DNA of 10,468 nt from Candidatus Iainarchaeum sp. (GTDB lineage: Archaea; Iainarchaeota; Iainarchaeia; Iainarchaeales; GCA-2688035): assembly GCA_028713935.1 (NCBI GenBank), contig JAQTNI010000041.1, positions 1-10,468 on the forward strand. Reading direction: 5' to 3'. Both the position numbers and the translations under genes were made by a program. Below, piece after piece: positions 1,333-9,139 of the stretch (positions are counted from its first letter, which is position 1; the number at the start of each line of letters is the position of its first letter). The notes under the pieces were generated by a model. It did no database searches. It was given only the letters and a program-made list of their open reading frames with translations, and was not told the origin of the DNA.

Positions 1333-1488
1333 GCGGGTGTGGTCTAGTGGCTATGATTCGACCTTGCCAAGGCCTTTTCTTAAAAAGAAAAGCCCTGGGA
1401 AAAGAAGTTTTTGCTAACGCAAAAACAATTTAACCAAAATCGAAATTGCAACGAGGTCGTGGCCCGGGTTCAATTCCCGGCACCCGCA
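1333..1488 (+). tRNA. tRNA-Gly (anticodon GCC) with an 84-nt intron at canonical position 37/38 (intron about 1370-1453)
   Basis: Acceptor stem GCGGGTG/CACCCGC (1333-1339 / 1481-1487). Anticodon stem cgacc (1359-1363) pairs with ggtcg (1455-1459). Anticodon GCC is at 1366-1368. T arm is ccggg-ttcaatt-cccgg. Splice motif: a 4-bp helix 1364-1367/1448-1451 is flanked by 3-nt bulges caa (1368-1370) and cga (1452-1454). Confidence 0.85.
1371..1426 (+). repeat. B-family two-hairpin repeat, copy B2, inside the tRNA-Gly intron
   Basis: ggcc-cttttctt-aaa-aagaaaag-ccctgggaaaagaa, then hairpin gtttttgc-taac-gcaaaaac (1407-1426). It makes up the 5' two-thirds of the intron. Confidence 0.75.
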
Positions 1489-4095: not shown

Positions 4096-4881
4096 ATGCA
4101 TGGAAAAAAATCTATTGCGGGAAAGGCCAGGGAGAGCGACAGAAGGCAAGAACGCCTTGAGGCTTTTCAGCGTTTGGTTGCTTCAAACGGCTTTGTAAAC
4201 CTGCAGCAGGTCCTGAGCGTCGCAAGAAAACACAATATTCCAGAAGAACACGCAAAAAGAATTGCTTTTCAACTTGGCTTTTTGGTACGAAAGAACAGGC
4301 GCCCTACAATAGAACATATTCCTGAAAGAAATATTGCCCGAGCTAATTTGAAAATTTTTGCTGCAACTTTTAAAAAATTTGAGAAGCTATTTTGGCAATT
4401 TGCAAATCCCTATATTGCGAAAGGAGTTCCTGAAACAATGCGGTATAATTATTGCATGGATTATTCAATGGCAACTATAGGAAAATTCAGGGGCGCGCGT
4501 TCGAAACTCAATTCTTGGGTTACAAATGGATGGGCGCAGGCAATGCGATCCGCATATCGGGATTTTTTAACAAGAGAAAAAAAGGAACATACAGTCGGCT
4601 CAAAAAAGAAAGGCTATTCTTTTTGGGATACGCAGGGAAGCGAACAAATGAGGCCTGAAGAAGAAACAATTCTTTTTGAACAAAGGCAGAGACTACACAA
4701 AGCGCTAGCACAGTTGCCTGCAAGAGAACGGGAAATTATCCAGCGGTATTATGGAATTGGCACAGGGATTAGCGAGACACATCAGGAGATAGGGGACAGC
4801 TTGGGCATTTCCAGAACTGCTTCAACCCAAAATGTGGAGAGAGCGCTTAAAAAGCTCCGTGAAGCCCTGCAAGAGGAATAA
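4096..4881 (+). CDS. Sigma-70-family-like protein (region 2-like and region 4 HTH) with an N-terminal extension
   Basis: 261-aa ORF. The C-terminus LPAREREIIQRYYGIGTGISETHQEIGDSLGISRTASTQNVERALKKLREAL fits the sigma-70 region 4.1/4.2 pattern (L..RE..v...RyG......T..EIg..lgiSr..v.Q.e..AL.KLR). The central KFRGARSKLNSWVTNGWAQAMRSAYRDFLTREKK resembles region 2 (F..W....a.n...d.lR). Confidence 0.6.
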   Translation: MHGKKSIAGKARESDRRQERLEAFQRLVASNGFVNLQQVLSVARKHNIPEEHAKRIAFQLGFLVRKNRRPTIEHIPERNIARANLKIFAATFKKFEKLFWQFANPYIAKGVPETMRYNYCMDYSMATIGKFRGARSKLNSWVTNGWAQAMRSAYRDFLTREKKEHTVGSKKKGYSFWDTQGSEQMRPEEETILFEQRQRLHKALAQLPAREREIIQRYYGIGTGISETHQEIGDSLGISRTASTQNVERALKKLREALQEE

Positions 4882-5217: not shown

Positions 5218-5574
5218 CTATTTGTTTTTTCGCTTGTCGATTCCGGAACGCCTGTCGTCAAAATAATAATAACGAGTATTTCCTCTCATTTCTGGCGGAG
5301 GACGCGCATTGAGCTCTTGCATTTCTGGAGCATCCGATGGCAACAATTGTACTGGGATGGTGTTAGGAAACTTTACGGGAAGTTTGTCGCGCCCTTTGCC
5401 GATTCGCATAAGAGAAAAAACGTTGTATCCTCTTAAGCCATATCCCTGCTTTTTTAATTCTTCATAAGTGAAAAACCGTTTGCTATTTTGGCTCTGGACG
5501 GCAAACCCATCATCCAATTTCTTGATAACCCTTGTTTGGGTTATCCATTTTCCTTTTTGTTCGCGTAAATCCAT
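5218..5574 (-). CDS. Hypothetical 118-aa protein, no recognisable family
   Basis: Clean ATG ORF preceded on the minus strand by ggagttggtaaATG (SD-like). It is divergent from the AbrB-like gene and shares the palindrome-rich promoter. Confidence 0.5.
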   Translation of the reverse strand: MDLREQKGKWITQTRVIKKLDDGFAVQSQNSKRFFTYEELKKQGYGLRGYNVFSLMRIGKGRDKLPVKFPNTIPVQLLPSDAPEMQELNARPPPEMRGNTRYYYFDDRRSGIDKRKNK

Positions 5575-5590
5575 TTTACCAACTCCATTT

Positions 5591-5668
5591 TAGGTACCTA
5601 AATTAGGTACCGAAATCTTTTAAATAAGTAGGTACCTAATGATAGCATTAAAAGTCGTGGGTACCTAC
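5591..5668. promoter_or_regulatory. Divergent promoter with four GGTACC-core palindromic operator candidates around a bidirectional TATA-like element
   Basis: Sites: taggtaccta (5591-5600), taggtaccga (5604-5613), taggtaccta (5629-5638) and gggtacctac (5659-5668). The near-palindromic cttttaaataag (about 5616-5628) lies between sites 2 and 3. Only one other GGTACC occurs in the window, at 3627-3632. Confidence 0.6.
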
Positions 5669-5669
5669 T

Positions 5670-5852
5670 ATGAACGGAATGAAACTCCAAAAACAGTCAA
5701 CCAGAAAAGTAGGCACCAAAGAATATGTAAAATGGGTTACCACAATTTCCCCAAAACTAATTCAAGACCTTGATTGGAAAGAAGGCGACCAACTTGAACC
5801 ATCGACAAGAGGAAAAAAACTTATAATTCAAAAGAAAGGGGAAAAGAAATGA
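5670..5852 (+). CDS. AbrB/SpoVT/MazE-type (swapped-hairpin) small DNA-binding protein
   Basis: 60-aa ORF. VTTISPKLIQDLDWKEGDQLEPSTRGKKLIIQKK fits the AbrB-family pattern (v.IPk.i.e.Lgl.eGD.le....g..l.i.k). Confidence 0.6.
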   Translation: MNGMKLQKQSTRKVGTKEYVKWVTTISPKLIQDLDWKEGDQLEPSTRGKKLIIQKKGEKK

Positions 5853-5906: not shown

Positions 5907-6881
5907 ATGAAGGAACCGTATATGACCATAGCATATGATTGTGTAAAATGCGGAAATGCGACCGATGCAAAGCAAGGTACAAAAAGATTGGCTATCCAGT
6001 TCTGCCGAGATTGTTTTGGAAAAAGGAAAGATTTACGACAAAATAGATTAAACAATTTGAATGGGAAAGAGTGGGCTGGATTTAGCAAGAGTGTTGAAGA
6101 TTACCCTGGAAATCGAACAGAAAAACAACGCGAACATGGCGCTTGTTATCCGCTTTCGCTTGCCAAACAGCAAATCAGTATTTACACAAAAAAAGGGCAC
6201 ACTGTTTTTGACCCTTTTTTGGGGGTCGGAACAACAGCAGAAGCCGCCGAAATGTTGGGAAGAAAATCCATTGGAATCGAGCTAAACAAAAAATTTGTTG
6301 AACTCGCAAAAAAAGACATAAAAAATAAAGAAAACCATACAATCATACAGGGCGACGCAAGAAACCTTTTGAAGCACATAGCCCCCAATAGCATTGATTT
6401 TCAATTAACGAGTCCACCATATGGCAATCTACTTAAAACAGTGAAAGGAGAGTTTGCGTTCAAATGGAAAGAACATTCAAAAATGAACACTGTAAAAAAT
6501 CCGATTCCCTACTCGTCCGATATAAAGGATTTAGGAAACTTACCATATGCAGAATTCATATCAAGCATTGAGAATATTTTCAAGGACAGCCTTAAAGTAC
6601 TTAAAGATGGTGCATATGCAGTATGGGTTGTAAAAGATTACCGAGACTTGGAAGAAAAAAAACCGCTCGTAAACTTTCATTCTGATATTATTCGCGCTGC
6701 CGAAAACGCGGGTTTAACCCTTTGGGACATTAAGATTTACGACCAGACAAAATTTCGCCCACTTGTTGTATTAGGCTATCCATCAAACAACTATTATCTA
6801 AACATTGGTCACTCTTATATTTTGGTTTTCAGAAAATATTTGAGTGGACGATATGCAAGAGAAACTGGTCAAAGAGTATGA
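5907..6881 (+). CDS. DNA methyltransferase 1 (N4/N6 family, SPPY type) with N-terminal zinc ribbon; AdoMet motif precedes the catalytic motif
   Basis: CVKCG...(17 aa)...CRDCF zinc ribbon. GACYPLSLAKQQISIYTKKGHTVFDPFLGVGTTAEAAEMLGRKSIGIELN matches the AdoMet-binding module of N4/N6 methylases. About 60 aa later comes IDFQLTSPPYGNL (motif IV). Then LKVLKDGAYAVWVVKD. Confidence 0.8.
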   Translation: MKEPYMTIAYDCVKCGNATDAKQGTKRLAIQFCRDCFGKRKDLRQNRLNNLNGKEWAGFSKSVEDYPGNRTEKQREHGACYPLSLAKQQISIYTKKGHTVFDPFLGVGTTAEAAEMLGRKSIGIELNKKFVELAKKDIKNKENHTIIQGDARNLLKHIAPNSIDFQLTSPPYGNLLKTVKGEFAFKWKEHSKMNTVKNPIPYSSDIKDLGNLPYAEFISSIENIFKDSLKVLKDGAYAVWVVKDYRDLEEKKPLVNFHSDIIRAAENAGLTLWDIKIYDQTKFRPLVVLGYPSNNYYLNIGHSYILVFRKYLSGRYARETGQRV

Positions 6882-7344
6882 AAAAAGCGCGAAAAACATC
6901 GCACTTGACCTTGATAACTACACTAATAACAACTATTTAACCCACAATTTTCACCCCTACCCCGCAAAGTACATACCGCAGATACCGAAGGAAATTCTTC
7001 TCCGATTATCAAAAAAAGACGATTGGATACTTGACCCATTTTGCGGCTCTGGAACGACTTTGGTAGAAGCCAAACTCTGTGGCAGGAATTCCATTGGCAG
7101 CGATATTAACCCGCTTTCTTGTATAATTACAAAAGTAAAGACAACAAAATTATCTGAAAATCAAATAAAAGAAATTCGGGAAATCTTAAATCAAGCGAGA
7201 GCAGACTTTATTAGCAAGAAAAAATACCCCGTTCCAGAATACTTAAACATTGATATGTGGTTTGACCGAGAAATAAAAGAGCAACTTGCCATCCTAAAAT
7301 ACCACATCAGTTTGGTCAAAGAGGATGAAGTCAAAATTTTTTAA
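6853..7344 (+). CDS. DNA methyltransferase 2, N-terminal fragment/subunit (AdoMet-binding motif I)
   Basis: HNFHPYPAKYIPQIPKEILLRLSKKDDWILDPFCGSGTTLVEAKLCGRNSIGSDINP. The ORF-track start is GTG 6844; the ATG is at 6853. The ORF ends at TAA 7342-7344, immediately after an A4T6 tract. Confidence 0.7.
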   Translation: MQEKLVKEYEKSAKNIALDLDNYTNNNYLTHNFHPYPAKYIPQIPKEILLRLSKKDDWILDPFCGSGTTLVEAKLCGRNSIGSDINPLSCIITKVKTTKLSENQIKEIREILNQARADFISKKKYPVPEYLNIDMWFDREIKEQLAILKYHISLVKEDEVKIF

Positions 7345-7991
7345 TGGTTGCTTTTTCTTCCATACTTGTAAAAGTGTCAAATCAAGATAGCGATACCCGT
7401 TACGCTGCAATTAAAAAAAAATTGCCACAAAATGCTGTTTGGTCTTATTTTGACAAGAAAGCAAAAGACATGCTGAAACGGATTGAAAGTTTTAACGCAG
7501 AAGCATCAAATTGTCCATGCGAAGTTTATCTTTCGGATTCTCGCAATCTGGACTTTCTCAAAAAGGAAATTGACCTTGTAATCACATCCCCGCCATATTT
7601 GAATAGCTATGATTATTACCTTTACCACAAACACCGGATGCTGTGGTTGGGACTAGACTACAGGAGTGCACAAGAAAAAGAATTTGGCTCAAGGAACAAG
7701 CATAGTGATAACCATGAAGGTATAGAAAGCTATGTAGATGCAGTAACCGCGAGCGTAAGTCATATTTCAAAAAATCTGAAAAAAAACGCGCATTTCTGTG
7801 TAATCATTGGCGACGCAATATTAAAAGGGGAAATTATAAAAATGAATGCGATCTTTGACGAAATTTTTCTAAAACAAGGATATACAAAAACTCGCGAAAT
7901 TCGTTTTGAGCAAAGAAAGTACACAAGAACATTTACCCCAAATATTAAAACCAAATTCAAGGAGTCATATATTCTAATATATCGGCGTTAA
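7344..7991 (+). CDS. DNA methyltransferase 2, C-terminal fragment/subunit (catalytic SPPY motif IV)
   Basis: Contains IDLVITSPPYLNSYDYY and HFCVIIGD. The ATG overlaps the upstream stop (TAATG). The frame is open only from 7329. Its stop overlaps the convergent nuclease stop (ttaa, 7988-7991). Confidence 0.7.
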   Translation: MVAFSSILVKVSNQDSDTRYAAIKKKLPQNAVWSYFDKKAKDMLKRIESFNAEASNCPCEVYLSDSRNLDFLKKEIDLVITSPPYLNSYDYYLYHKHRMLWLGLDYRSAQEKEFGSRNKHSDNHEGIESYVDAVTASVSHISKNLKKNAHFCVIIGDAILKGEIIKMNAIFDEIFLKQGYTKTREIRFEQRKYTRTFTPNIKTKFKESYILIYRR

Positions 7992-9139
7992 AGCGAAGAA
8001 TATCTTTTATCGCCAAAAGAAGAATATTCCGTTGAACTTTTTGAGATTACTCTAACTATAAACCAAACATCAGGGTTATCCGTCAATTTGAACTCCAAAA
8101 TATCGCCGCTTGAAAGAGAATTTAACATTGTTCGATTTAGAAATGTAAATCGCAATTCTTGATTCTTTCGTGCATGGGTTGGGGCGGGCAAGTAGTGAAT
8201 TGCTCTGACATTATTGAGTCGATTTTTTTCACCTGCTGAATCTAGCATAATAATATTAAAAAAAACGTCTGCTTGTCTGGCGTCACTTTCGGTGGTAACC
8301 CAATCAGAAAACGGTGGAAAATAGGTCAAAAACTGAATAGGTATTACTATTTGGCCTGGGGAACTGGTTTGGCTCACGTCATTTTTAGATAACTTTTTCC
8401 AAAAACCGCGATTGATTGAGGATATTCCAGTAACTTCCAAATTTTGTTCATCTCGTTGGTGTATGATAGTAACGGGCGGCGGGCGAAAGGATTCTGAACC
8501 AAATATTGGTTCCTTTCCAGCAGATTGGGATTCAAATCGGCTCCCGTATCCTGCCCCAGATTCAACTTCCTCATTCCCCAAATAATTTTTTTGAATGAGT
8601 CGATTAAGTAGTTCGGGTGAAAGGCACTTACAACAGGGCGAGGTTGCACTTGAATAAGAGGAAAATATCGATTTGTATTTTGAATACTCCGTTAGTTGTT
8701 CTTGGTTTGTCAAATCAAAATCATACTGGCAGTTTATTTCATAATTTGTGTATAGCCCACCCGCAGTTAGATTACTTGAACCAACGATAACTATAGCCCG
8801 CAAATTATTTTTTTCAAAAAAATATATTTTGGGGTGAAACGTTTGGGTTATGCTCTCGCTATGATACACATAAAGCTCATCACACAATGGGAGTAACATC
8901 TGAAGCCCTTGTTGCGAAGTATTTTTTTGGTCAATCCCAACGATTCCTTTAATGTGCCCGCCCGATTGTCGAAATCGTTGAAGATATGGCTGTAATCGAA
9001 TTACTCCGCTTTTCTTTACATACGCCGCCATGAAATAGAAGGTATCAAAGGAATCTGTTTGTGGGAGGTTCAGAAGTTCTGCGAGTTTTTCCCCTGCCTT
9101 TTTGTTTCGGGGCTGGTCAATAAGTTCAATCCAAGTCAT
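7988..9139 (-). CDS. Restriction endonuclease candidate: N-terminal HKD/PLD-family nuclease fused to a C-terminal B3/EcoRII-N-like DNA-binding domain (BfiI-like)
   Basis: 383-aa ORF. It has a single HKD motif, HPKIYFFEKNNLRAIVIVGSSNLTAGG (HxK...GSxN). The C-terminal GFWKKLSKNDVSQTSSPGQIVIPIQFLTYFP ... SGDILEFK fits the F.K.Ls.nDv......q..IP......fP ... GD...F pattern of B3 / EcoRII N-terminal pseudobarrels. Confidence 0.7.
   Translation of the reverse strand: MTWIELIDQPRNKKAGEKLAELLNLPQTDSFDTFYFMAAYVKKSGVIRLQPYLQRFRQSGGHIKGIVGIDQKNTSQQGLQMLLPLCDELYVYHSESITQTFHPKIYFFEKNNLRAIVIVGSSNLTAGGLYTNYEINCQYDFDLTNQEQLTEYSKYKSIFSSYSSATSPCCKCLSPELLNRLIQKNYLGNEEVESGAGYGSRFESQSAGKEPIFGSESFRPPPVTIIHQRDEQNLEVTGISSINRGFWKKLSKNDVSQTSSPGQIVIPIQFLTYFPPFSDWVTTESDARQADVFFNIIMLDSAGEKNRLNNVRAIHYLPAPTHARKNQELRFTFLNRTMLNSLSSGDILEFKLTDNPDVWFIVRVISKSSTEYSSFGDKRYSSL

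Follow-up and report, generated by a model that had tools for sequence, protein, structure and literature searches.

The DNA analyzed here (the window) is a 10,468-nucleotide (nt) stretch from Candidatus Iainarchaeum sp., the forward strand of contig JAQTNI010000041.1 in assembly GCA_028713935.1. The Iainarchaeota are a DPANN-group phylum according to a taxonomy look-up. The window contains a three-gene cassette encoding two predicted DNA amino-methyltransferases (MTases), M1 and M2, and a nuclease, R, of 383 amino acids (aa) (Table 1). The M1 and M2 genes overlap by 29 nt and, from the positions of the open reading frames (ORFs), both are transcribed toward R. The M2 ORF as listed has a GTG start at 6844, and the M2 homologues begin at the ATG at 6853. 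A first-pass annotation, made from the letters of the sequence, had called this cassette a BfiI-type system, and the fold of R, its catalytic residues, and the linkage of the three genes in 12 of 12 loci support that call. We conclude that the cassette is very probably a stand-alone restriction-modification (R-M) system of the BfiI type, that is, a type II (type IIS-like) system.

TABLE 1 Features of the M1-M2-R cassette. Positions are those of the window; AdoMet, S-adenosylmethionine; PLD, phospholipase D
Feature	Position (nt)	Strand	Description
M1	5907-6881	+	324-aa predicted DNA amino-methyltransferase
M2	6853-7991	+	Predicted DNA amino-methyltransferase, two ORFs here (PF01555 matches)
M2 N-terminal piece	6853-7344	+	AdoMet-binding half, motif I DPFCGSGTT at 7033-7059; PF01555 E 7.6e-16
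M2 tract A4T6	7333-7342	+	Point where the M2 reading frame breaks
M2 C-terminal piece	7344-7991	+	Presumed target-recognition region and catalytic half, motif IV TSPPY (SPPY at 7587-7598)
TTAA	7988-7991		Overlapping stop codons of convergent M2 (TAA, +) and R (TAA, -)
Nuclease R, 383 aa	7988-9139	-	PLD domain and predicted B3-like domain
R residues 236-383	7991-8434	-	Predicted B3/EcoRII-N-like pseudobarrel, presumed sequence reader
R residues 166-235	8435-8644	-	Helical segment, then low-confidence flexible linker (AlphaFold)
R residues 1-165	8645-9139	-	Single-HKD phospholipase-D/Nuc-type catalytic domain

The N-terminal half of R had been described as carrying a single HKD motif, and profile searches bear this out. 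The chain has one such motif, HPKIYFF...VGSSNLT (residues 102 to 125), and it matches both Pfam PLDc_2 (E 7.8e-8; 32.7 bits, cut-off 27) and the Pfam RE_NgoFVII PLD model (E 5.3e-6). Residues H102, P103, K104, G120, S121, N123, T125, G128, N132, and E134 were invariant in the R family (n = 49 homologues). Four of these, H102, K104, N123, and E134, all encoded within 8738 to 8836, align in a HMMER alignment with H105, K107, N125, and E136 of BfiI, which form the active site of that enzyme; NgoAVII has an Asp (Asp124) at the third of these positions (PMC4267654). When the single R sequence was searched against the PDB, the PLD domain of SauUSI was the top match (E 5e-5) and BfiI (2c1l) was also found (E 1.4e-3). 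With a family profile of 49 full-length homologues the E values became 3.9e-9 for SauUSI and 8.4e-9 for BfiI.

The AlphaFold model of full-length R had a predicted local distance difference test (pLDDT) score of 91.4, with values of 95 to 98 in the N-terminal domain. The region between the two domains was modeled as helices at residues 175 to 183 and 190 to 205, and the pLDDT fell below 70 over much of residues 190 to 240. The first-pass annotation had proposed that the model be compared with the BfiI fold. In a Foldseek search of the PDB BfiI was the first match (E 2.8e-16), with both domains aligned. It was followed by SauUSI, with the PLD domain only, and by the NgoAVII R-protein 4rct, again with both domains (E 4.3e-9); a plant B3 domain appeared further down the list.

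The signature F.K.LS.ND...IP...FP...GD..F that had been reported in the C-terminal half of R is present where it was said to be, as F246-x-K-x-L-S-x-N-D254, IPIQFLTYFP, and GDILEF, and it is mostly conserved in the homologues. Modeled alone, residues 236 to 383 gave a pLDDT of 96.3 and a predicted template modeling (TM) score of 0.89. The top 30 Foldseek matches of this model in the PDB were exclusively DNA-binding pseudobarrels, with members that included the B3 domains of VAL1, FUS3, LEC2, RAV1, TEM1, NGA1, and ARF proteins as well as BfiI, LlaJI.R1-N, UbaLAI-B3, and EcoRII-N. The VAL1 B3 domain scored E 2e-4 (TM score of 0.67 to 0.71 on the target) and BfiI E 7.9e-4 (TM score of 0.62 on the query), followed by LlaJI.R1-N, RAV1, UbaLAI-B3, and EcoRII-N. 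The predicted structure thus passes as a B3/EcoRII-N-type DNA-binding pseudobarrel. EcoRII-N, UbaLAI-B3, LlaJI.R1-N, and the plant B3 domains share the fold of the C-terminal 148 residues of R, in which the pattern F-x-K-x-L-S-x-x-D...IP...FP resembles the B3 signature; but in those proteins the fold belongs to PD-(D/E)XK fusions, an effector domain, or a transcription factor, whereas in R it is fused to a PLD domain. Among 1.84 billion representative clusters (50% identity), the reader domain of R was present in 132. It was C-terminal in every full-length-sized match, these being proteins of ~350 to 460 aa, and the shorter matches looked like fragments.

M1 and M2 belong, on the evidence of their sequence profiles, to the DNA amino-methyltransferase family, in agreement with the earlier placement of both among DNA MTases. 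M1 scored 98.2 bits against PF01555 and the two pieces into which M2 is divided in the window scored 59.2 and 27.7 bits (cut-off 26.7). The type II MTase models of PADLOC matched M1 and M2 at E values from 5e-40 to 1e-26, among them MTase_II with M1 (E 5.3e-40) and MTase_II PDLC03364 with the C-terminal piece of M2 (E 4.9e-31). The M2 pieces matched PDLC03364, which is 380 residues long, colinearly, at positions 31 to 156 and then 165 to 376. The RNA-methyltransferase models Trm11, Trm14, and UPF0020 gave weak matches to M1 and M2, all of them far below the cut-offs. Motifs I and IV are conserved in both proteins, as DPFLGVGTT and TSPPY in M1 and as DPFCGSGTT and TSPPY in M2. In M1, motif I is at 6210 to 6236 (residues 102 to 110) and the SPPY of motif IV is at 6411 to 6422 (residues 169 to 172).

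The closest solved relatives of M1 and M2 are beta-class DNA MTases that modify N4 or N6, namely, TTHA0409 (2zie), CcrM, rotifer N4CMT, DpnA, and M.MboIIA. Beta-class PF01555 enzymes such as TTHA0409 (2zie), CcrM, M.PvuII, and rotifer N4CMT match the AdoMet-binding and catalytic blocks of M1 and M2, but in M1 and M2 the order of these blocks is circularly permuted. Motif I precedes motif IV in both M1 (gap of ~60 residues) and M2 (gap of ~180 residues). Under the MTase class definitions based on motif order (PMC2890505), this arrangement, as read from the sequences, departs by a permutation from the beta order usual in PF01555 and is alpha-like. SPP(Y/F) has been called a hallmark of the enzymes that make N4-methylcytosine (m4C) (PMC3425538), and N4CMT, an m4C enzyme, carries SPPY (PMC10406627). 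M1 and M2 are most likely m4C enzymes as well, which we offer as a lead, not a finding. M1 also has an N-terminal CxxC...CxxC zinc ribbon (residues 12 to 36, nt 5940 to 6017), an unusual addition for a PF01555 methyltransferase. Both the ribbon cysteines C12, C15, C33, and C36 and the residues T168-S-P-P-Y172 were invariant in nine M1 homologues from archaea and bacteria.

The first-pass annotation had described two SPPY methyltransferases converging on R. The motifs, the direction of transcription, and the PF01555 matches agree with that description, but it overlooked a frame break: M2 in the window consists of two ORFs, of 166 aa and 215 aa, that divide at 7342 to 7346 (TAATG). The cause is one missing A, giving A4 instead of A5 at 7333 to 7336, so that the tract is A4T6 where it is A5T6 in sibling assemblies. 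These are the Logan assemblies L017 (SRR22315506, 1,966 nt) and L018 (SRR22315508, 1,822 nt), which are independent assemblies from sibling samples of the same organism and are the same as the window except for this single gap. L017 and L018 read GTCAAAAATTTTTT, and the window reads GTCAAAATTTTTT. In both assemblies M2 reads through (...EVKNFLMVAFSS..., ...EVKNFLMVAFSSILVKVSNQD...) and is colinear with its homologues. Likewise, in 11 of 11 other loci M2 is a single ORF of 364 to 396 aa, and the N-terminal piece in the window is colinear with residues 1 to 163 of the single-chain, 377- to 380-aa M2 of loci L001 to L003. An exact-sequence look-up of the M2 fragments with three choices of start found no record. 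Because the sibling assemblies carry A5 and a continuous M2, we attribute the split to the loss of one nucleotide from the run of A's at 7333 to 7336. The simplest account is an error of assembly, although a variant of the strain is possible; the split is not there by design. We also considered that a T had been lost from the adjoining run of T's and rejected this, since the sibling assemblies differ from the window by one A. Two further ideas, a gene split by design and coupled through TAATG and a -1 slip of the ribosome, were rejected because M2 is continuous in the sibling assemblies.

Related loci were collected with an 11-sequence alignment of R, and M1, M2, and R were each searched with tblastn against every fetched locus. 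The three genes were adjacent in all 12 independent loci, which come from two domains of life and belong to Iainarchaeota, Woesearchaeota, Pyrinomonadaceae, LCP-89, Fictibacillus solisalsi, Solirubrobacterales, and Arthrobacter. Three gene orders occurred: R convergent on M2 and M1, M1-M2-R, and R-M1-M2. In an all-versus-all comparison of ORFs of at least 100 aa from the 12 loci, the MTases and the nuclease were the only families common to more than two loci. No gene for a DEAD/helicase-like N (H) protein was found in the window or in the annotated neighborhoods of loci L001 to L004, and no helicase or ATPase gene was conserved across the 12 loci, which argues against a mode of action like that of NgoAVII and CglI. 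Judged by this gene context, R would act without an ATPase partner. The 4-nt tail-to-tail overlap of M2 and R is found also in loci L001, L003, L004, L006, L007, and L009; that it is kept between archaeal and acidobacterial copies suggests that the cassette moves as a unit. A nuclease gene that is linked to its cognate MTase genes and moves with them is a type II R-M cassette, and M1, M2, and R fit this description. Transposase genes (DDE_Tnp_1, rve/IS240) lie within 1 to 3 kb of the cassette in locus L001 (10312 to 11487) and of a sister system in locus L016 (8548 to 9693), and such neighbors are consistent with mobility. In a plasmid collection we found partial matches to the PLD domain of R only, and no full-length relative. 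In locus L015, from Arthrobacter sp. AFG7.2, a second PLD-like sequence that is weakly similar to R (23% identity with its residues 27 to 138) lies at 1804 to 2139, ~4 kb upstream of the cassette nuclease.

A search for homologues of R gave 361 matches, many of which cover only the first ~57% of the protein. One of the homologues, P0051, is 54% identical to R over the PLD domain and linker and has an unrelated C-terminal part. In another, P0052 (locus L016, 5001 to 7908), the PLD domain and linker are >50% identical to those of R and the C-terminal domain is outside the aligned region. In place of M1 and M2, P0052 has as its partner one Eco57I-like N6 MTase of 579 aa; its system adjoins a ParB-like gene and a transposase. 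A different C-terminal domain together with a different MTase is what would be expected in a sister clade if the C-terminal domain sets specificity. This one sister-clade locus fits a C-terminal domain of R that serves as a specificity module and covaries with the MTases, and it suggests a joint exchange of the reader domain and the MTase set.

R has the build of BfiI/BmrI (type IIS, ACTGGG 5/4; 2c1l), with an N-terminal single-HKD PLD domain, a linker, and a C-terminal B3-like pseudobarrel. The two proteins are similar in length (358 aa for BfiI and 383 aa for R), their His/Lys/Asn/Glu tetrads are identical, and neither system has an ATPase partner gene. The BfiI system reportedly has two m4C MTases. 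Two separate MTases, as in the present cassette, are usual in type IIS systems (PMC4081073). The differences from BfiI are that R falls in a separate, uncharacterized clade whose hosts include DPANN archaea, that M1 has a zinc ribbon, that motif I precedes motif IV in M1 and M2, and that the reader domain of R does not detectably resemble BfiI-C in sequence. The recognition site is therefore almost certainly not ACTGGG.

From these likenesses we propose how the cassette would work. The C-terminal pseudobarrel of R would read a specific DNA sequence. Because each chain has one HKD motif, as in Nuc and BfiI (PMC4081073), the active site would need two chains; R would therefore be a dimer in which the PLD domains of two subunits pair to form one composite site, with H102, K104, N123, and E134 contributed by each chain. 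By the same likeness this site would cut near the recognition sequence and outside it, without a metal ion and with resistance to EDTA, by way of a covalent phospho-histidine intermediate. M1 and M2 would protect the host DNA. That there are two separate MTases points to an asymmetric site, of which each enzyme most likely methylates one strand, and the modified position, as judged from motif IV, is most likely the N4 of cytosine.

Several observations weigh against this reading. In the Foldseek alignments R and BfiI are only ~14 to 15% identical, and the global TM score is low (0.39 to 0.41), which reflects either a different orientation of the two domains or flexibility of the linker. Scans of Pfam, NCBIfam, and the PHROGs found no B3 or EcoRII-N match in the C-terminal half of R. 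The pseudobarrel named in the first-pass annotation thus holds up in the AlphaFold model and its top 30 Foldseek matches but not against the Pfam B3 and EcoRII-N profiles, and the B3 assignment, having no support at the level of sequence, rests on the predicted structure. As regards the MTases, SPPY does not strictly part enzymes making m4C from those making N6-methyladenine (m6A): the two types may resemble each other closely (PMC10609329), and DPPY is found in M.CbeI, which makes m4C (PMC3425538). A search for the recognition site by pooled k-mer depletion in 124 kb of cassette loci found only generic 6-bp palindromes depleted, with no asymmetric candidate. Finally, M2 is frame-broken in the window as given.

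The structural evidence would also fit an R that is a subunit of the NgoAVII/CglI type, dependent on ATP hydrolysis by a helicase-like ATPase (N/H protein) encoded elsewhere. NgoAVII and CglI need such a DEAD/helicase-like protein and ATP (PMC4267654, PMC5737866), and their R-proteins (4rct) resemble R both in the PLD plus B3-like build and in having a dimeric single active site. The RE_NgoFVII match and the significant full-length structural match to 4rct point the same way. The build common to BfiI and NgoAVII does not discriminate between them, and since published structures leave it unexplained why BfiI stands alone and NgoAVII does not (PMC4267654), fold alone cannot settle the matter. 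However, the 12 loci have only M1, M2, and R in common, with no helicase or ATPase gene conserved, and no N/H gene is linked to the cassette. BfiI ranks above NgoAVII whether the search is by sequence or by structure, NgoAVII not being reached at all by the R profile, and the third catalytic residue of R is Asn, as in BfiI, where NgoAVII has Asp (PMC4267654). We consider dependence on such a partner quite unlikely. More improbable still is that this is not a classical R-M system at all, with R being modification dependent (type IV-like) or a PLD nuclease with no role in restriction and M1 and M2 acting on RNA or protein. PLD domains do occur in type IV enzymes, and SauUSI was the top sequence match of R in the PDB; the PADLOC model mREase_IV also matches R (E 9e-7), and M1 and M2 have their subthreshold matches to RNA-MTase models of the Trm11, Trm14, and UPF0020 types. 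But the SauUSI match is limited to the PLD domain, and R has a B3-like second domain and lacks the helicase and target-recognition domains of SauUSI. The RNA-MTase matches fall far under the curated cut-offs, whereas that of PF01555 is passed. Moreover, R is tied to two DNA MTases in all 12 loci, an arrangement that marks R-M systems; a methyl-dependent nuclease so placed would turn on the DNA of its own host.

The broken M2 raises the question of whether the system is decaying or switched off in this organism. If the deletion were real, M2 would be dead and R either silenced or tolerated by virtue of M1; or the A/T tract might be a phase-variation switch. The window does carry A4T6 and the two short M2 ORFs, the M2 pieces have no record as called proteins although R and M1 do, and the break is in a homopolymer tract, a classic slippage substrate. 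Yet A5 and an unbroken M2 are present in two independent sibling assemblies that are otherwise 100% identical to the window. Both R and M1 are complete and keep all their conserved residues, and there are no other lesions. A tract as short as A4/A5 is a weak substrate for slippage, and a single-base homopolymer miscall in one contig of a metagenome-assembled genome is simpler. We regard decay or switching as unlikely, if somewhat less so than the alternatives above, and the notion that the A4/A5 tract truly switches the system on and off within the population is more speculative.

The region upstream of M1 has features of its own. Four palindromic boxes, (T)TAGGTACCTA(A), occur in 80 nt at 5585 to 5669, within the 95 nt that separate a pair of small, divergent ORFs. 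GGTACC occurs five times in the window versus 0.48 expected, and four of the five are upstream of M1. The arrangement of the boxes resembles an array of operators that surrounds an AT-rich, TATA-like sequence, TTTTAAATA (5618 to 5626). We rejected GGTACC as the recognition site of the cassette because it is palindromic and its copies gather in a single promoter region, as operators do, whereas a restriction site is as a rule avoided and not clustered. One of the small ORFs (5670 to 5852, plus strand; 60 aa), 55 nt upstream of M1, has a weak AbrB/SpoVT-like match (TIGR01439, E 0.0076; phrog_661, E 3e-4). For the divergent 118-aa ORF (5218 to 5574, minus strand) no family match was found. Small ORFs precede M1 elsewhere too, with 57 aa and an HTH_24 domain in locus L001 and with 67 aa and no family match in locus L003. 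Compared by eye, the upstream small ORFs of the window, L001, and L003 look unrelated, so among them we found no conserved controller (C) protein; they might be interchangeable controller proteins.

The genes neighboring the cassette are archaeal housekeeping genes, encoding RNase P Rpp21, ribosomal protein S19e, a PDCD5-like double-stranded-DNA-binding protein, and tRNAs. Adjoining the Rpp21 gene is one for a 261-aa protein (4096 to 4881, plus strand) with a bacterial-type sigma-70 region 4 (PF04545, E 2.6e-13; PHROG "RNA polymerase sigma factor," E 1.8e-11). A protein of this kind is not usual in archaea; it may be a regulator that was gained by horizontal transfer or that derives from a virus. 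At 1333 to 1488 (plus strand) there is an Rfam tRNA match of 45.5 bits that ARAGORN did not call; that 156 nt are needed to cover the full 71-position model implies a long intron in the tRNA gene.

The architecture, catalytic residues, and gene context of the cassette are those of BfiI, and it is not a new kind of system. The first-pass annotation rated it as newer than it is: a 2014 review of type II enzymes had already called those of the PLD type "far from rare" and put the number of putative examples in REBASE at >40 (PMC4081073). A 2023 survey of archaeal R-M systems included only six DPANN genomes and left PLD enzymes unmentioned. In engineered nucleases, the BfiI catalytic domain has already provided a cleavage module that tolerates EDTA (PMC2094064). 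The present cassette opens no new mechanism and resolves no long-standing question.

To our knowledge, BfiI and its isoschizomers are the only stand-alone PLD-type restriction enzymes that have been studied biochemically. The cassette would add a second, divergent clade with the same build and another reader, probably with a new type IIS specificity, and this clade would test how B3-like domains encode sequence recognition. We find it plausible, and put forward tentatively, that the clade is a family of BfiI architecture with a new, uncatalogued recognition sequence, that it has moved between DPANN archaea and bacteria of several phyla, and that its sister clades swap the reader and MTase set and keep the PLD-linker module. 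If that is true, nature would here provide a modular set of type IIS enzymes that cut without metal ions. The cassette would also exemplify the transfer of a whole cassette between DPANN archaea and bacteria, and it gives a function to proteins that are labeled merely "phospholipase D family protein" or "HKD family nuclease."

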